From sequence record PQ724392.1: a stretch of DNA of 64,000 bases; one strand, written 5' to 3'. Below, piece by piece: positions 17,916 to 63,143 of the stretch. The notes below the pieces were generated by a model. The model had not been told where the DNA came from, did no database searches, and worked only from the letters and a program-made list of their open reading frames with translations. Each line of letters starts with the position of its first letter. Position 1 is the first letter of the stretch. This stretch comes from a phage. The translations under genes were made by a program, and so were the position numbers.

Positions 17916-18215
17916 TTAGAAAGAACCAGAGCCTTTAATTGTGTTCTGGCGACCTTTATTTTCTAATTCAGAATGGTCGATTTCATATGCTTGTGCTACG
18001 CCAAAGGCCTTTTTAACTTTAGCTAAAGAGCCTTTAGATGTGACAATATTAAAAGTATTGCCTTTAGTAAAATCAACCAAATCCACTTGTACACCCTGTT
18101 TACCGAGGCTTGCTACAATAGCATCAACATATTGTTGGTCTAAATTGCCCTGGACTCCGATTTGAAATGCTTTGGGAGCTTTGGCTTCAGTAATAAATTC
18201 TTGATACGTTTTCAT
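17916..18215 (-). CDS. internal-protein-like capsid-targeted protein
   Basis: MKTYQEFITE N-terminus matches the T4 internal-protein capsid targeting sequence. Confidence 0.6.
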   Translation of the reverse strand: MKTYQEFITEAKAPKAFQIGVQGNLDQQYVDAIVASLGKQGVQVDLVDFTKGNTFNIVTSKGSLAKVKKAFGVAQAYEIDHSELENKGRQNTIKGSGSF

Positions 18216-18263
18216 TTTATATTCCATTGTTTGGTTGATAAAATCATTATACAACCTTTTTAG

Positions 18264-18680
18264 TTAAGCGTACACAGCTTTCCCATAGTATTTGTACCAA
18301 GCAGGCTTTTGAGAAATTTTCTCATTCAGTCTAGCTTGACTGATTTCAATTGACCAGATTGATGGTTGATAATCATTCTTCCATTCATCAGGAATATCAG
18401 TTAAATCTTGGGTAGAAATATCTTTTATGTTAAACCCTCGCTTTAAACATTCCGCAATAAGTTCTTGATGCCGGTTTTTAAGGAACAAAAGCTTATCATA
18501 AAAGAAGGTGACATGACCAGTCCCTAAAAGGAAAGATGATGGGATTTTAAAGTCAGAAACCTTTTTACCATTTTGTACATGCTTACGAACAGCACCAAAC
18601 ACGCGAGGAAGTTCACGATATTCAGCCATAAGATGTTGGTCAGCGAGTTCAGATACCAGGGTTAAATTAATGCGAGTCAT
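18264..18680 (-). CDS. denV: Endonuclease V (pyrimidine dimer glycosylase)
   Basis: 138 aa; near-identical N-terminus to remembered T4 DenV. Confidence 0.9.
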
Positions 18681-18735
18681 GTTTGTTCTCCGTAGTTGAT
18701 AGGGTCATTATAACCCTATCATTTGGAGATGTACA

Positions 18736-19005
18736 TCATTTCTTAGAGTATTGACCCATAAGTTTAGCGATATCACCCAATTTCTGATTAAACAAATAAT
18801 CCACTTCTTTGCCAGATTTATCTACAATTTGCCACTGACCATTTCCTTTGTTGCCAAAGGTCCAATCACCAACTTTAAATGAAGTTCCATTAACTTTTTT
18901 AATAGAAGTAAACTCAAAGCCTTCTTTCTTAGCTAAAAATGCCATGCGGCTTTCATCTGATTCATTTAATACAGATTCAGCCAAAAATTCTTGATACGTT
19001 TTCAT
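18736..19005 (-). CDS. internal-protein-like capsid-targeted protein
   Basis: MKTYQEFLAE targeting sequence; directly downstream of lysozyme e. Confidence 0.65.
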   Translation of the reverse strand: MKTYQEFLAESVLNESDESRMAFLAKKEGFEFTSIKKVNGTSFKVGDWTFGNKGNGQWQIVDKSGKEVDYLFNQKLGDIAKLMGQYSKK

Positions 19006-19013
19006 ATTTTACC

Positions 19014-19505
19014 TTATTTGTATGCGTCAAAAGTTCCGGTACGGAACGTTTCTATAACTCGTTTGGCTCGGTTCGGAGTCTGGACTTTATACCATCTTGA
19101 GTCCGCCAGTTCCTTGGCAGCCGCTTCCCATGATTTAGCCTTCAGCAATCGCATACCCTTAGGAAAACCAGCAACACCAGCAACACCCATCTGGAATACC
19201 ATATTAATGAGTGCACAACGACGAACTTCATCCAGTACATCATAAACAGGTTTTAAGACAGGATGTCTCAAGATTCCGGCTTTAGCCTTTTCGACCGAAC
19301 GGTTAAACAGTGTTTCGGCTTCGTGCTGGGTTATACGACCATTACAGACACGACCCATGAGCTTATCGAGCTCGGCGCGAGCAACATCTTTAGATGGGTT
19401 CTTAGTTATCAGTTGTCCGATGCCAATGGTCCAATAGCCTTCAGTATCTTTATACAAATCCAACTTACAACCTTCATCTATACGTAACATTTCGAATATA
19501 TTCAT
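19014..19505 (-). CDS. e: Lysozyme (endolysin)
   Basis: 163 aa; [12 protein letters not shown]...[13 protein letters not shown] colinear with T4 lysozyme. Confidence 0.95.
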
Positions 19506-28625: not shown

Positions 28626-29009
28626 TTATCCGCGAGCGAATGCCATTGCAGCGCGTTCGTTGGCACGGTCGGTGATGTTCAAGAATTTATCACGAGCGAT
28701 TTCGATTGGAGCGCCAACCCAGTCAGCAGCTCCATTACCCGGAGACTGTTTAGGGCGAACCATATAAGTTGAAACTTTGGAACCGGCTAGTTTGGCACCT
28801 GGCGCCGCGGCATTTTTAACGTCTTTAGCTTTGATGCCAAACCCAGTTACGATACCCCAAGAAACGCCATTAACTGGTTTCTTGAACATAACACGGTCAC
28901 CAATTGAAACACCGGCTTTTTCTGGAGCCACTAAAGAAAATTTACCAGCTTCAGTCAGTACAGATTCGGTGATGGTATTGCGATTTAAAAATTCTGCATA
29001 TGTAAGCAT
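28626..29009 (-). CDS. internal-protein-like protein (degenerate targeting sequence)
   Basis: MLTYAEFLNRN N-terminus; perfect TATAAATA about 32 nt upstream. Confidence 0.5.
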   Translation of the reverse strand: MLTYAEFLNRNTITESVLTEAGKFSLVAPEKAGVSIGDRVMFKKPVNGVSWGIVTGFGIKAKDVKNAAAPGAKLAGSKVSTYMVRPKQSPGNGAADWVGAPIEIARDKFLNITDRANERAAMAFARG

Positions 29010-29048: not shown

Positions 29049-29241
29049 TTCCATAGTACCGGATGCACCATCCGCTCGGATTTCTCATACTACCGGGCGC
29101 ACCGCCCGCTCTGGAAAAACTCCGTAAAAGGGTGCGCCGTTTCAGCTGTGGTAGTAAAGAACCAGAACACAGTAAAACTGTGGGAGGAACTATACTTCAG
29201 GGAACTTCAGTCCGACGACTTACCGGTAGCGACCCGGTTTC

Positions 29242-29481
29242 TCATTCAATTGTAATAGCTAATTTGACTTTAACAACCTTATAATTGGAATCAAGGTCAT
29301 TGAATTCCATAAAATTTGTTGCTAATCTGCGAGTCGGGAAACTTAGATATTTATTATGCTCAGGTGGAGCAGTTAATGCAAACCATGGGACTTGTTTATC
29401 ATTTTCATCAAACTCATCAAAGCTATAAACCAGCTCGTTGTTGGTTATATCCATAACTGCATATGATTCACTAATAACCAT
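29242..29481 (-). CDS. hypothetical acidic protein
   Basis: ATG 29481 (GAGGA RBS) chosen so ORF does not overlap tRNA. Confidence 0.45.
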   Translation of the reverse strand: MVISESYAVMDITNNELVYSFDEFDENDKQVPWFALTAPPEHNKYLSFPTRRLATNFMEFNDLDSNYKVVKVKLAITIE

Positions 29482-30909: not shown

Positions 30910-31095
30910 TTACTCACCTTTGGAGATTTTATCCATAACGAAAGAGATTGAACCAATTAAAAATGCAACTACTAAAGAGATTATATTCTCAGAAGTTGAA
31001 AGCATATTCAACATAAAGCCAGCAAACATGCTAAAACCAAAAGCGGTAACAGCAACAAGGGCAGTAACATTTCTAATTAATTCGCAACGTTTCAT
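30910..31095 (-). CDS. small membrane protein
   Basis: 61 aa, 2 TM; GAGGAG RBS. Confidence 0.45.
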   Translation of the reverse strand: MKRCELIRNVTALVAVTAFGFSMFAGFMLNMLSTSENIISLVVAFLIGSISFVMDKISKGE

Positions 31096-31154
31096 TTTAT
31101 TCTCCTCAGTAGTTGATGGGATAATTATAATGCAGTTATCCCATCGCGTATACT

Positions 31155-31397
31155 TTATTTTAAGTCTTCCAGACGTTTTTTCATCTTGGTGCCGTTCTTA
31201 GCAATCTCGCCTGCATCGGAACAAAGAGCAAGGAGAGCTTTAACTTTACCCTGGTCGCCTTTAAAAGATGATGCATCTACTGAATCAGCAAGTTCTTTGA
31301 TACGTGCAAACAGGCGCTCTGCTTCAGCAAGGGCTTGACCAAGTTTAACTTCCATACCATGAGAAGATTCTGTTATAAATGTTTGATAAGTTTTCAT
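31155..31397 (-). CDS. internal-protein-like capsid-targeted protein
   Basis: MKTYQTFITES targeting-like N-terminus. Confidence 0.55.
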   Translation of the reverse strand: MKTYQTFITESSHGMEVKLGQALAEAERLFARIKELADSVDASSFKGDQGKVKALLALCSDAGEIAKNGTKMKKRLEDLK

Positions 31398-31442
31398 GTT
31401 GTCTCCAAGCCATAAAAAGGGGATAATTATCCCCTTGTATTA

Positions 31443-31742
31443 TTACATCTTACTACCACGGATTACACCATAAGCGGCGAAGTCGTCAGTGATATTTTTA
31501 GGGGTGTTCTTACCAGTTTCAATGAAGGCAATGCTTGATTTCTGACTAAAAGAGGTAATTTTGTTATAGTTAGAGTCAAGGAAGGTATAACCATTTTTAC
31601 GCAACTGGTCAAAGTCTTCAGCGTCGCCTTTACCTTTGAAGTCAACCCATTTGTAGGTGTTTTTCTTCTGAAGGCCAAGAGGCCAGGTTTTTGCTTCCGC
31701 CAGGTAATTGTTTTCTACCAAAAATTCATGAAAAGTTTGCAT
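31443..31742 (-). CDS. internal-protein-like capsid-targeted protein
   Basis: MQTFHEFLVEN targeting-like N-terminus. Confidence 0.55.
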   Translation of the reverse strand: MQTFHEFLVENNYLAEAKTWPLGLQKKNTYKWVDFKGKGDAEDFDQLRKNGYTFLDSNYNKITSFSQKSSIAFIETGKNTPKNITDDFAAYGVIRGSKM

Positions 31743-31750
31743 TTGAAATC

Positions 31751-32023
31751 CTATTTAAGATAAATTGCATATTTTTTATAACCAGCTGTCTCATGACGGA
31801 GACCCTTGTCATTGGCAAAACGCTCAATGTTATTAATTTGGTTCTGGTCAAGTTCTGAAATGTCAAACGCGAAAAAGTTGCGTTTGTTGCCAATTGTTAT
31901 ATGGTCAGTTAAGTCAATGCTATACAGGTGATTGATATTGTCAATCATAGCTTTGACTGCTTTACTAATTTTTACTTCTTCATTCAGTTGTGACTCGTTG
32001 AAAAATTCATTGAAAGTTTTCAT
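31751..32023 (-). CDS. internal-protein-like capsid-targeted protein
   Basis: MKTFNEFFNES targeting-like N-terminus. Confidence 0.55.
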   Translation of the reverse strand: MKTFNEFFNESQLNEEVKISKAVKAMIDNINHLYSIDLTDHITIGNKRNFFAFDISELDQNQINNIERFANDKGLRHETAGYKKYAIYLK

Positions 32024-32031
32024 AAGAAACC

Positions 32032-32364
32032 TTATTTATAAAGTTTTGCCAGTTCTTTACGTCCGCGAGCAGACATAATAAATTGTTCATCGCCAATTTT
32101 AAAATAAGCCATACCGCCGTCAACAGCGATACCAATTTCTTTAGTACCTTCTTTGCCTTTCCACTTGCCACCAGATTTCAGGACAGCTTCAACTGCAGCT
32201 TTGGAATATTTGGATGTTTGAAAACGTTCATTACCAATCTGAAAGAAAACACCATCTGCATTTTTGGTTAAACCAAATTTCAGAGAGCCTTCACTATCAT
32301 CAATTGATTTGGTCTCATTGATGGCGGATTCAGCTAAAAACTCGTTATAAGTCTTGAGGTTCAT
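32032..32364 (-). CDS. internal-protein-like capsid-targeted protein
   Basis: MNLKTYNEFLAES targeting-like N-terminus; early promoter upstream. Confidence 0.55.
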   Translation of the reverse strand: MNLKTYNEFLAESAINETKSIDDSEGSLKFGLTKNADGVFFQIGNERFQTSKYSKAAVEAVLKSGGKWKGKEGTKEIGIAVDGGMAYFKIGDEQFIMSARGRKELAKLYK

Positions 32365-32428: not shown

Positions 32429-33119
<691 letters not shown>

Positions 33120-59400: not shown

Positions 59401-60975
59401 ATGGCAGGTTTTAACACAATACTAAATTTTCTTAAGCCTTGGGCTAAAGAAGATGAACAAGAATATAAGCAACAAGAAAAAAATAATTTAGAGTCAATGA
59501 CCGGGCCGAAGTTTGACGATGGGGCTCGCGAAATTGAGTCACAAGAACAAAACGTCCCGTATAATGCATTGATGCAACAGATGTTCGGGAGTAATGAACC
59601 TGAAGTAAAAAATACCAGGGAATTAATTGACACATACCGCAACTTACTAAATAATTATGAAGTTGATAACGCGGTGCAAGAAATTGTGTCTGATGCTATC
59701 GTTTTTGAAGACGGTAAAGATGTTGTAGCTCTTAACCTTGATGCTACCGAATTTAGTCAGAAAATTAAAGACCGAATCCTCGAAGAATTCACGGAAGTTA
59801 ATAACCTCCTTAATTTCGAGCGCAAAGGTTCTGACCACTTTAAACGTTGGTATGTGGATTCTCGAATTTTCTTCCACAAAATTATCAACCCAGCAAAACT
59901 TAAAGATGGGGTCCAAGAACTTCGTCGCCTTGACCCAAGACAAATCCAGTTCATCCGTGAAATCGTTACACGCATGGAAAATGGTACAAAAATTGTCGAC
60001 GGTTACAGAGAATATTTTGTATACGATACTGGCCATGAAAGTTATTGTGCCGATGGTCGTATATATGAAGCAGGTACTAAAATAAAAATTCCTCGTGCGG
60101 CGATTGTATATGCGCATTCTGGATTACTCGATTGTTGTGGCAAGAATATCATCGGATACTTGCAACGAGCAATTAAACCTGCAAACCAATTAAAACTATT
60201 AGAAGATGCTTTAGTCATTTATCGTATAACTCGTGCACCAGACCGCCGAGTCTTTTATATCGATACCGGGAATATGCCGTCTCGTAAAGCAGCAGCACAT
60301 ATGCAACATATTATGAATACGATGAAAAACCGTGTCGTATATGATGCAACCACGGGTAAAATCAAAAACCAACAGCACAACATGTCTATGACAGAAGACT
60401 ATTGGTTGCAACGCCGTGATGGTAAAGCTGTCACCGAAGTTGACACTCTCCCGGGTGCGCAAGGCATGTCGGATATGGACGATGTTCGCTGGTTTAAGAA
60501 CAACCTATATCAGGCTCTCCGAATTCCATTATCTCGTATCCCTAATGACCAAAACAGCGGCGTTATGTTTGATGCGGGCGCGACAATTACTCGCGATGAA
60601 TTGAATTTCTCTAAATGGATTAGGCAGCTACAGAATAAATTTGAAGAAGTTTTCCTCGACCCGCTTAAAACCAACCTTATCCTGAAAAAAATTATTTCAG
60701 AAGAGGAATGGGAAAAGGAACTAAATAATATTAAAGTTACGTTCAACCGTGATAGCTATTTCACCGAAATGAAAGACGCAGAAATCATGGAACGCAGAAT
60801 CAATATGCTAACGATGGCTGAACCGTTTATCGGTAAATATATTTCGCATCAAACGGCTATGAAGGACTTCCTCCAGATGTCTGATGAAGAAATTAATCAA
60901 GAAGCTAAGCAAATTGAATTGGAGTCCAAAGAGGCTCGTTTCCAAAACCCTGAAGAAGAAGAAGAGGATTTCTAA
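59401..60975 (+). CDS. 20: Portal vertex protein gp20
   Basis: 524 aa, same length as T4 gp20. Confidence 0.9.
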
Positions 60976-61226
60976 TGGATGATTTATTTGAAGCCATTAA
61001 ATCAAACGACCTCGTAGCCGTTCGCAAATATTTTGCTGAAAACATTGGCCCAGTATGCGGTAGTTTGATTGAAGAACGTAAGATTGAAATTGCACGTTCC
61101 ATCATGATTGAAGGCGAAGAGCCTAAAGAAGATGATGAAGACGGTAAAGCAGAAAAGAAAGACAAAAAAGAATCTGATGACGCTGACGAAGGCGACGATG
61201 ATGAAGATGATGAGGACGATGAATAA
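60975..61226 (+). CDS. 67: Prohead core protein gp67
   Basis: 83 aa with polyacidic C-terminus. Confidence 0.7.
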
Positions 61227-61654
61227 TGTTTATTATCCCTGATGATTACGAATTAACTCTTGAAAACATTGAAAGTGTTTCCGAAGAAGCTCAGGGACAA
61301 TTTGATTCATTATCTGAAGCCTTAGAAAAAGACGATATAAATATTATTGTAGAAAACATGTTTGCAGCCGGTGAATATGAAAAAGCAACGGTTATCGGTG
61401 CGCTGAATGAAGGTGTTCAGCTTAACGAATTTATCGTTAAACATGTATCGTCTCGCGGTGAGTTAACCCGCACAAAAGACCTAGCTACTCGTAAGCGTAA
61501 TGCTTTCCAAACAACTGGTCTTTCTAAAGCTAAACGTCGTCAAATTGCCCGTCTGGCTACTAAAACAAAAAGAGCAAACCCATCTACGCAAATCAGAGCA
61601 GAGCGCAAGCGCAAAAAAGCTCGAGCTAAGCGTAAAGCATTCGGACTTGATTAA
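61226..61654 (+). CDS. 68: Prohead core protein gp68
   Basis: 142 aa, ATGA-coupled. Confidence 0.7.
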
Positions 61655-62292
61655 TGGAACAGAAACCAGAGTTACTAATCGAACACTGGGGTCAACCGGG
61701 CGAAATTAAAGATGGCGTACCGATGTTGGAATCTCATGATGGTTCCAGCACCGGTTTAAAGCCAGGACTTTATATTGAAGGTATTTTCCTACAAGCTGAA
61801 GTTGTTAACCGTAATAAACGACTTTATCCTAAACATATTTTGGAAAAAGCCGTTGCTGATTATATGACAGAACAGGTTGCTACTAAACAAGCTTTAGGAG
61901 AATTAAATCATCCGCCCCGTGCTAACGTCGACCCTATGCAAGCCGCTATTATTATTGAAGATATGTGGTGGAAAGGTAATGATGTATATGGCCGCGCACG
62001 TATTATCGAAGGCGACCATGGCCCAGGTGATAAACTTGCTGCAAATATAAGAGCAGGTTGGATTCCAGGTGTATCTAGTCGTGGACTTGGTTCCTTGACT
62101 AAATCAGCAAAAGGTTATAGCATCGTTAATGAAGGTTTTAAATTGACGGTTGGAGTAGACGCAGTATGGGGGCCAAGTGCTCCGGACGCTTGGGTCAAAC
62201 CAAAGCAGATTACAGAATCACAAACGGCAGTTGCCGATACCAGTGCCGATGACGCCTTTATGGCTCTCGCAGAGGCTTTAAAGACGTTATAA
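61654..62292 (+). CDS. 21: Prohead core scaffold protein and protease gp21
   Basis: 212 aa, same length as T4 gp21. Confidence 0.9.
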   Translation: MEQKPELLIEHWGQPGEIKDGVPMLESHDGSSTGLKPGLYIEGIFLQAEVVNRNKRLYPKHILEKAVADYMTEQVATKQALGELNHPPRANVDPMQAAIIIEDMWWKGNDVYGRARIIEGDHGPGDKLAANIRAGWIPGVSSRGLGSLTKSAKGYSIVNEGFKLTVGVDAVWGPSAPDAWVKPKQITESQTAVADTSADDAFMALAEALKTL

Positions 62293-62295
62293 ATA
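62288..62295 (+). promoter_or_regulatory. late promoter TATAAATA for gene 22
   Basis: exact 8-mer overlapping gene 21 stop codon. Confidence 0.5.
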
Positions 62296-62324
62296 AATGT
62301 ATATCTTAACAACAGGACTACAAA

Positions 62325-63143
62325 ATGCTTAAAGAACAACTCATTTCTGAAGCTCAGAATATCGATGCTTCCGTTGCTCTCGATAGTATTTTCGAATCAG
62401 TTAATTTGTCCCCGGAAGCGAAAGCTACCTTCGGCACTGTATTCGAAGCTACTGTCAAGCAACACGCCATCAAACTGGCAGAATCTCACATTCACGCCAT
62501 CGCTGAAAAAGCTGAAGAAGAAGTCGAAAAGAATAAAGAAGAAGCCGACGAAAAAGCAGAGAAAAAACTGAAAGAATCTGCAGCTAAATTCCTGGACCAC
62601 GTTGCTAAAGAATGGCTCGCTGAAAATAAACTGGCTGTCGACCGTGGCATTAAAGCTGACCTGTTCGAATCCATGTTCACCGGCATGAAAGAACTGTTCG
62701 TTGAGCACAACGTTGTTGTTCCAGAAGAATCTGTCGATGTTGTTGCAGAAATGCAGGAAGAACTGGCTGAACAGAAAGAAGAAACCGCTAATCTGTTCGA
62801 AGAAGTTGCTAAGCGTGATGCTTATATCAATTATGTCCAACGTGAAGTTGCGTTGACTGAAGCGACTAAAGACCTGACTGAATCTCAAAAAGAAAAAGTT
62901 GGTTCTCTGGTAGAAGGCATGGAATACTCTGATGCATTCGGTACCAAAATTGGCGCTATCGTTGAAATGGTTAAAGGTCAGGTAGAAGCCACCAACAAAC
63001 CAATCACCGAAGCCGCTATAAATAAAAATGTAGACGATGCTGCGGCACTGAATTACATTTCAGAAGCAGTTGAAGAAAAAGGCACCAAGCCTACCCTGTC
63101 CTTTGCGGACTTGTCTGCTCTCGCAGCATCACGAATTTCTTAA
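62325..63143 (+). CDS. 22: Prohead core scaffold protein gp22
   Basis: 272 aa, acidic coiled coil. Confidence 0.85.
   Translation: MLKEQLISEAQNIDASVALDSIFESVNLSPEAKATFGTVFEATVKQHAIKLAESHIHAIAEKAEEEVEKNKEEADEKAEKKLKESAAKFLDHVAKEWLAENKLAVDRGIKADLFESMFTGMKELFVEHNVVVPEESVDVVAEMQEELAEQKEETANLFEEVAKRDAYINYVQREVALTEATKDLTESQKEKVGSLVEGMEYSDAFGTKIGAIVEMVKGQVEATNKPITEAAINKNVDDAAALNYISEAVEEKGTKPTLSFADLSALAASRIS
63017..63024 (+). promoter_or_regulatory. late promoter TATAAATA for gene 23, inside gene 22
   Basis: exact 8-mer about 140 nt upstream of gene 23 ATG. Confidence 0.45.

Follow-up and report, generated by a model that had tools for sequence, protein, structure and literature searches.

What does a phage do with a row of small genes whose products are alike in their first residues and different in their bodies? 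The question is raised by positions 31155-32364 of a 64,000-nucleotide (nt) stretch of phage DNA (sequence record PQ724392.1; this whole stretch is called the window below), where four consecutive minus-strand open reading frames (ORFs) of 80, 99, 90, and 110 codons follow one another with gaps of 8 to 45 nt. According to the preliminary description of the window, T4 has a single gene, ipI, at this position, which is correct (the T4 order is trna.4 - ipI - 57B), and similar N-termini occur in three further ORFs, at 17916-18215, 18736-19005, and 28626-29009; all seven ORFs were recovered at the coordinates that it gave and with the N-termini that it quoted, all of them on the minus strand. By DNA comparison, the window comes from a Gaprivervirus, that is, a coliphage and VR7/ECML-359-like T4 relative of the Tevenvirinae, and the DNA of the locus is 94-98% identical to that of the Gaprivervirus phages EAWsc9, ECML-359, vB_EcoM-VR7, VR20/25/26, and SP18. 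We conclude that the seven ORFs are very probably internal protein (Ip) genes of the T4 type, whose products carry a capsid targeting sequence (CTS), are processed by gp21, are injected with the DNA, and act against host defenses. The seven ORFs, with lengths in amino acids (aa), are as follows.

31155-31397, minus strand: Ip5-type internal protein gene, 80 aa; leader MKTYQTFITE, then S; phrog_3499 'internal head protein', E=2.4e-41
31443-31742, minus strand: internal protein gene, 99 aa, orthologue of VR7 ORF154c; leader MQTFHEFLVE, then N
31751-32023, minus strand: Ip9 internal protein gene, 90 aa; leader MKTFNEFFNE, then S; phrog_7673 'internal head protein', E=1.7e-56
32032-32364, minus strand: candidate internal protein gene, 110 aa; N-terminus MNLKTYNEFLAES; leader MNLKTYNEFLAE, then S
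17916-18215, minus strand: Ip7 internal protein gene, 99 aa, between vs.8 and denV; leader MKTYQEFITE, then A; phrog_2667, E=8.4e-43
18736-19005, minus strand: internal protein gene, 89 aa, between denV and e; leader MKTYQEFLAE, then S; phrog_8765 'internal virion protein', E=4.6e-37
28626-29009, minus strand: candidate internal protein gene of an orphan family, 127 aa; N-terminus MLTYAEFLNRNTITES; leader MLTYAEFLNRNTITE, then SVLTE, then A

A common leader on seven genes

The leader follows the consensus M-K-T-(Y/F)-x-E-F-(L/I)-x-E over about 10 residues. Six of the ORFs match MKTYQEF(I/L)AE closely, and two more residues stand before KTY in the 110-aa ORF (MNL-KTY...); the 127-aa leader agrees at T3, Y4, E6, F7, and L8 and deviates at L2 and R10. 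A regular expression for the leader matched exactly 7 of the 751 ORFs in the window (ATG starts, at least 40 aa, six frames), and a looser pattern that also admitted GTG and TTG starts added one match, a spurious TTG ORF on the non-coding strand. As no match was obtained in 200 second-order Markov simulations of the window, the occurrence of the leader is real and far beyond chance, and the accidental likeness that the preliminary description had allowed for was thereby put aside.

In T4, the CTS recruits the internal proteins to the gp22 scaffolding core, and gp21 cleaves C-terminal to a Glu residue and so removes the propeptide (PMC5694885, PMC3012670). The CTS peptide was experimentally sufficient for targeting to the T4 capsid (Mullaney and Black 1996, as cited in PMC5694885 and PMC3012670). 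The genes for this machinery are present at 59401-63143 of the window, which codes for the portal protein gp20 (Portal_T4), gp67 (GP67), an ORF at the gp68 position, gp21, and gp22.

61654-62292, plus strand: gp21 prohead core serine protease, expected to be the leader-removing enzyme; Pfam Peptidase_S77, E=4.9e-102
62325-63143, plus strand: gp22 scaffolding core protein, expected site of recruitment of CTS proteins; Pfam T4_CASP, E=5.6e-91

An (L/I)-x-E motif stands at the end of the leader in five ORFs (ITE10, LVE10, LAE12, LAE10, and ITE10), the corresponding motifs being FNE10 and then LNE15 in Ip9 and ITE15 and LTE20 in the 127-aa ORF. When cleavage was predicted at the first (L/I/V/F)-x-E at or after residue 9, a rule that yields the known 76-residue IPI* from T4 IPI (length from PMC3012670), the seven predicted mature products had 70 to 112 residues, and six of them were basic, with isoelectric points (pI) of 8.8 to 10.1, Ip9 being neutral. 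A second (L/I)-x-E motif was seen 5 to 6 residues beyond the first in five of the seven leaders (LAE16 in the ORF at 31443, LNE15 at 31751, INE17 at 32032, LNE15 at 18736, and LTE20 at 28626). From their sequence, these doubled motifs suggest a two-step trimming or alternative mature N-termini, and they are reminiscent of phage prohead proteases, for which multiple propeptide sites are on record (PMC5694885).

Compared with their VR7 orthologues, the four codon-comparable genes showed strong purifying selection (pN/pS 0.03-0.08, pooled 0.05), so these ORFs are real, functional genes. The leaders were invariant in 12 homologues each of the 110-aa and the 89-aa families, those of the 110-aa protein coming from Edwardsiella, Salmonella, and other phages, and the linker just behind the leader varied. 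The codons of the leader vary as well while its amino acids are kept, with ACT, ACG, or ACA for Thr, GAA or GAG for Glu, and TTG, TTA, ATT, or ATA for Leu/Ile.

Family assignments and relatives agree with this picture, since PHROG profiles placed five of the seven proteins in families of 'internal head' or 'internal virion' proteins. The 80-aa gene is annotated as ip5 in ECML-359 (predicted mature form of 70 aa, pI 8.8). The 31443-31742 protein (phrog_2667, E=5.9e-21; pN/pS 0.06) is 97% identical to VR7 ORF154c, an 'internal head protein' in RefSeq, the 31751-32023 protein is 99% identical to VR7 Ip9 (pN/pS 0.03), and the 17916-18215 protein is 97% identical to VR7 Ip7 (pN/pS 0.08). Homologues of the 89-aa gene adjoin the lysozyme gene in T4-like phages of Enterobacter, Serratia, Edwardsiella, and Proteus. 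The 110-aa protein is 98% identical to VR7 ORF156c and belongs to phrog_3966, a family of 'unknown function'. ORF156c (L003 17107-17472) is annotated as 'hypothetical', with a start ATG 11 codons upstream that buries the leader, and it has probably never been labelled as an Ip because the annotated start hides that leader. Scans of the seven proteins against Pfam and NCBIfam gave sub-threshold noise only, and sequence searches of the PDB with five of them gave nothing meaningful. Two labels in EAWsc9, 'homing endonuclease' for the 99-aa gene (L002 2253-2552) and 'profilin' for the 110-aa gene (L002 2842-3174), had no support in any search and are regarded here as spurious.

The positions of the genes point in the same direction. 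Four of them lie between trna.4 and 57B, two flank denV, and the seventh is at another, recurrent site downstream of tRNA-Arg. The 99-aa gene at 17916-18215 and the 89-aa gene stand one on each side of denV near the lysozyme gene e, which is the neighborhood of T4 ipII and ipIII, whereas T4 has its two genes between denV and e. The array itself lies between trna.4 at one end and 57B, 57A, and gene 1 at the other.

30910-31095, minus strand: trna.4 homologue, flank; from the ORF and the annotation of relatives
32429-32884, minus strand: gene 57B, anti-CBASS nuclease Acb1, flank; Pfam Acb1, E=1.2e-59, and the annotation of relatives

Gene 57B is immediately upstream of the array, and because it codes for the anti-CBASS nuclease Acb1, the Ip array lies in an anti-defense neighborhood.

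The bodies behind the leaders had been called unrelated in the preliminary description. This stands at the level of BLAST, as no pair among the seven proteins fell below E=0.1 after the first 14 residues had been trimmed, but profiles point to possible distant links: phrog_2667 includes the 31443-31742 protein as well as Ip7, with VR7 ORF127c (32% identical to the former over the full length) as the bridge, and phrog_3966 together with hhalign ties the 89-aa to the 110-aa protein (E=6.6e-8, 94.6% probability). As the latter signal comes mostly from the leader, homology between the bodies of these two families is not claimed. The comparison with T4 proposed there showed leaders that are alike and bodies that are not. 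The leaders in the window match those of IPII and IPIII (MKTYQEFIAE) and the longer leader of IPI (MKTFKEFTSTTTPVSTITE). Likeness to IPII and IPIII is limited to the first 11-16 residues, no window protein gave a match to IPI, and, in the comparison with IPI*, Ip2, and Ip3, likeness to T4 proteins stayed within the first 11-29 residues. The window genes thus resemble those for T4 IPI, IPII, and IPIII in the CTS with its (L/I)-x-E motif, both genomic neighborhoods, the size and basic charge of the products, and the protease and scaffold genes, and they differ in that four genes stand where T4 has ipI alone and in bodies of no detectable sequence likeness to the T4 proteins.

Gene cassettes and the repeats at their borders

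The Ip locus has been known to be polymorphic since the work of Repoila et al. 1994 (cited in PMC3012670, PMC4122927, and PMC12373910). In 28 related viral contigs, 0 to 5 leader-bearing genes were found directly downstream of 57B, in many combinations. The orders downstream of 57B in the window and its closest counterparts are given below.

This window: 110 aa - Ip9 - 99 aa - Ip5
ECML-359 and EAWsc9: as this window, plus an Ip6-like 84-aa gene
VR26: 110 aa - Ip9 - Ip5 - Ip6
VR25: 110 aa - Ip9 - 99 aa - Ip6
VR7 and VR20: 110 aa - Ip9 - 99 aa - ORF153c - Ip6

The combination in the window (110 aa, Ip9, 99 aa, and Ip5, without the Ip6-like gene) is unlike that of every relative inspected. It shares with the polymorphic cassettes of T-even relatives (Ip5-Ip10 and others; VR7, VR20/25/26, and ECML-359) the architecture of the array and the variable content, as well as orthologues of 97-99% amino acid identity (Ip9, Ip7, ORF154c, and ORF156c) and Ip5.

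The second Ip locus, for which the following gene orders were found, is as mosaic as the first, since the orders differ among the window, VR7, ECML-359, and T4; the 89-aa Ip gene between denV and e is lacking in both VR7 and ECML-359.

This window (17916-19505): vs.8 - ip7 - denV - 89-aa Ip - e
VR7: ip7 - ORF127c - ip10 - denV - e
ECML-359: denV directly beside e
T4: denV - ipII - ipIII - e

How such differences arise is best seen at the end of the array. The extra 84-aa Ip6-like gene (MKTYQEFINEA...) of the 98%-identical phages ECML-359 and EAWsc9 lies between ip5 and trna.4 (window 31095-31155 compared with L001 1596-1965). In ECML-359, a copy of the stem-loop GATGGGATA(A/G)C...TATAATTATC(C/T)CATCAACTACTG, followed by a ribosome site, stands on each side of this gene; two copies enclose it in EAWsc9 as well, and the window keeps a single copy at the exact junction of the indel. 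As far as can be read from the aligned DNA, this is the signature expected of recombination between the stem-loop repeats. Two stem-loops lie between genes of the locus in the window, the first of them being the one that is doubled around the Ip6-like gene.

31114-31146, no strand assigned: stem-loop GATGGGATAAC...TTATCCCATC with an embedded TATAAT, between ip5 and trna.4
31417-31436, no strand assigned: stem-loop AAGGGGATAATTATCCCCTT, between the 99-aa gene and ip5, with a T-run behind it on the minus strand

A second set of repeats consists of the leader-coding 5' ends with their ribosome sites. A 59-nt repeat (D1) spans the junction and the leader-coding sequence of ORFs 2 and 3 of the array, and the ribosome-site context GGAGACAAC-ATG-AAA-ACT-TAT-CAA is common to ip5 and the Ip6-like gene. 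Because pN/pS is low, diversification proceeds via cassette exchange and not via rapid point mutation.

The arrangement resembles that of promoter-early stem-loops (PeSLs), which were proposed to shuffle genes in the hyperplastic regions of T4-like phages and which their authors linked to earlier observations on the IP locus (Comeau 2014, PMC4122927; also Arbiol 2010). As in PeSL shuffling, the indel is bounded by two stem-loops with a TATAAT-like box, followed by a Shine-Dalgarno sequence and an ATG. It differs in that no convincing -35 element was scored here, so that a promoter role is putative, and in that the conserved leader-coding 5' end serves as a second repeat, which classical PeSLs do not have. 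Scans for sigma-70 promoters and terminators over the locus gave no more hits than shuffled sequences.

Within the array, one late promoter was found.

32033-32040, minus strand: late promoter TATAAATA, overlapping the stop codon of the 110-aa gene, 17 nt before the ip9 ATG

This promoter is too close to the ATG for a normal ip9 leader and may serve the genes further downstream. Before three of the Ip genes, the junction has the sequence T(A/T)(T/C/A)AAATA(A)GG, which overlaps the preceding stop codon (window 32033-32040 and 18999-19013); it is late-promoter-like and too near the ATG for a normal leader. At such junctions the preceding gene ends in ...YK* in the case of both the 110-aa protein and lysozyme.

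The tRNA-proximal gene and the 110-aa protein

Two Ip loci are recognized in the literature (PMC12373910). The 127-aa gene lies outside both, 488 nt downstream of a tRNA-Met/tRNA-Arg pair, and the perfect late promoter that had been reported in front of it was confirmed.

29048-29041, minus strand: consensus T4 late promoter TATAAATA, 39 nt upstream of the 127-aa ATG

The 127-aa ORF is the only weak member of the seven, as its leader has L in place of K2 and FLNR in place of FLxE. Its protein had no match in Pfam, PHROG, or NCBIfam. It was found in no more than 16 phage records, which are 99% identical or more and in every case 'hypothetical', and a set of 5.8e9 proteins contained one cluster of it. 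When 1.84 billion representative proteins were scanned exhaustively with HMMER, only three matches appeared. One of these (P0002) is a 53-residue fragment that is 88% identical to residues 1-52, and the other two, P0003 (MYTFKEFLVESELDLITEA) and P0004 (MKSFKEFMLSEK), are the sole distant homologues of the body.

Could the N-terminus of this ORF be a chance likeness or a decayed remnant, and its product not an internal protein? We consider this unlikely, although with less assurance than for the other alternatives discussed below. The substitutions at K2 and Glu10 (to Leu and Arg, respectively), the missing family annotation, the restriction to 16 near-identical phages, and a poor structure model (AlphaFold2, pLDDT 60.8, too poor for a structure search) would all fit such a view. 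It is opposed by the two distant homologues of the body, both of which also carry CTS-like leaders and one of which (P0003) sits in a T4-like contig, and by the late promoter. The two deviations have precedents in that VR7 Ip7 also begins with MLTY and T4 IPI likewise lacks Glu10 and is cut at ITE19.

Also against a chance likeness, the leader itself leads to a further family. The first 22 residues of the 127-aa protein align to MKTYNEFLNESVL(T/N)EA except for a 5-residue insertion (RNTIT), and the leader thus equals MKTYNEFLNESVLTEA, the leader of the phrog_2280 family, plus five residues, at the same genomic position. The phrog_2280 proteins (153-205 aa) are encoded 300-1000 nt downstream of tRNA-Arg in JS98-like phages and many other T4 relatives. 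The family covers 144 phage records; it is 'hypothetical' in all of the 30 records listed and of 'unknown function' in PHROGs. Leader-bearing genes at the tRNA-proximal site of relatives are the following; at the equivalent place T4 has e.8, which bears no leader.

L007 9210-9593; L010 7809-8282; L011 8947-9564: tRNA-proximal leader genes
L008 9465-10028; L014 8033-8497; L030 8967-9428: tRNA-proximal leader genes in further relatives

Between the small ORF that follows tRNA-Arg and the late promoter, the minus strand is GC-rich and hairpin-rich (29050-29245) and contains, near 29055-29115, a pair of similar units of the form 'hairpin + TA(G/C)TATG'; in T4, the stable RNAs rnaC and rnaD occupy this place. 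A stable RNA at 29050-29245 was considered and dropped, as there was no Rfam match and the fold z-score was -0.9.

The 110-aa protein stands apart because of its predicted structure. Its best AlphaFold2 model had a pLDDT of 74.8 (the other four, 53.5-63.7), which corresponds to moderate confidence, and consists of two beta-beta-beta-beta-alpha repeats that are also visible in the sequence (FFQIGNERFQTS / YFKIGDEQFIMS). The model resembles Whirly/PUR proteins and not IPI*, so that a Whirly/PUR-like fold is predicted; sequence identity to proteins of this fold (MRP1/MRP2, PBF-2 p24, Pur-alpha, StWhy2, and SsgA) is 8-13%, and the likeness is one of predicted fold only.

With somewhat more doubt than belief, we therefore put forward a proposal in two separate parts: that non-Tequatrovirus T4 relatives have a third Ip locus downstream of the tRNA cluster (phrog_2280; here the orphan 127-aa family), and that the 110-aa protein is an injected, Whirly/PUR-like binder of single-stranded nucleic acid. 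A third locus would be a modest extension of the two known ones, and binding of single-stranded nucleic acid by the 110-aa protein would, if true, point to a target other than GmrSD.

Role of the internal proteins

About 1000 mature internal proteins per T4 head stay with the DNA, and ejection brings them into the host (PMC5694885, PMC3012670); their lysines contact DNA phosphates (PMC3012670, PMC5694885). Silas et al. 2025 (PMC12373910) found that T4 Ip1, Ip2, and Ip3 each inhibit one distinct type IV restriction enzyme of the GmrSD type and proposed that all genes of the Ip loci target GmrSD variants. By analogy, the CTS of each window product would dock on the gp22 scaffolding core during prohead assembly, gp21 would cut after the Glu of (L/I)-x-E, and the leader would leave the head. 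A small mature protein of 7.5-12 kDa, basic in most cases, would stay amid the packaged DNA and be injected with it. The unrelated bodies would most likely each neutralize a different host defense at DNA entry, as T4 Ip1-3 do, the most probable targets being variants of GmrSD-type modification-dependent nucleases. The diversity would be maintained not by point mutation but by cassettes that are gained, lost, and swapped, with swapping via the repeats at the cassette borders, i.e., the ribosome-site and leader-coding 5' ends and the intergenic stem-loops. That these particular proteins are packaged, cleaved, and injected and act against restriction is what we infer from their leaders and loci and from the behavior of the T4 proteins.

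Several points weigh against this reading. Virion proteomics or functional data for these proteins were not found in the accessible literature, and GmrSD attacks glucosylated hydroxymethylcytosine (glucosyl-hmC), a modification that the DNA of this phage may or may not carry. Several leaders are off consensus: the first site of Ip9 has F, and not L/I, at P3, the 110-aa protein has its two extra residues, and the 127-aa protein has L2 and R10 for K2 and E10. Canonical late promoters stand at only two of the seven genes, one of them badly placed, and the others have near-consensus late motifs or none. By sequence, no body resembles T4 IPI, IPII, IPIII, or a solved structure, and for this reason an anti-GmrSD function is proposed purely by analogy.

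An alternative role is one in which the leader-packaged proteins are a generic basic, DNA-associated filler that aids charge balance, condensation, or ejection and has no specific host target. The basic charge of six of the seven predicted mature forms, the abundance and phosphate contacts of the internal proteins in T4 heads, and the predicted nucleic-acid-binding Whirly/PUR-like fold of the 110-aa protein would suit a filler. It leaves unexplained, however, why the folds are unrelated, why cassettes turn over between 98%-identical phages, and why each body is under purifying selection, and all three T4 Ips have specific GmrSD targets (PMC12373910), so that we give this explanation a small chance. 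That the common N-terminus is not a protein signal at all and is a by-product of a copied DNA module for translation initiation or recombination, as the context common to ip5 and the Ip6-like gene and the 59-nt repeat might suggest, is close to negligible, because the leader codons differ while the amino acids stay, the leader persists in homologues of only 50-60% identity from phages of other genera, and in T4 the same peptide sufficed as a capsid signal (Mullaney and Black 1996, cited as above).

The interpretation as CTS-bearing, injected anti-defense proteins thus agrees with the preliminary description, which had seen in these genes a diversified set of injected proteins; the leaders, the loci, the PHROG families, the assembly machinery, and the published view of Rao and Black 2010 (PMC3012670) all favor it. 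It is right and at the same time restates known biology, because Rao and Black 2010 had stated this view and Silas et al. 2025 have provided the experimental case. A feature of this kind is textbook knowledge for T-even-type phages, and GenBank or PHROGs already name most of the genes. What annotation lacks is the leader of the 110-aa proteins (ORF156c/phrog_3966), the family of the 127-aa protein, and the recurrent locus near the tRNA genes (phrog_2280).

Internal proteins enter with the DNA before phage gene expression and are thus the first counter-defense of the phage, and the known targets so far are those of T4 Ip1-3 only. The window adds no new principle to this; it adds seven candidates to be matched to host defenses, namely, five labelled families (Ip5, Ip7, Ip9, the ORF154c type, and the 89-aa type) as well as two that are un-annotated. 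A repeat-bounded example of the loss or gain of a cassette comes from the comparison of close relatives. Annotation would gain from corrected starts of genes of the VR7 ORF156c type and from flagging phrog_2280, phrog_3966, and the 127-aa family as leader-bearing, and the un-annotated leader families should be useful to curators and to screens of injected proteins against defense systems.

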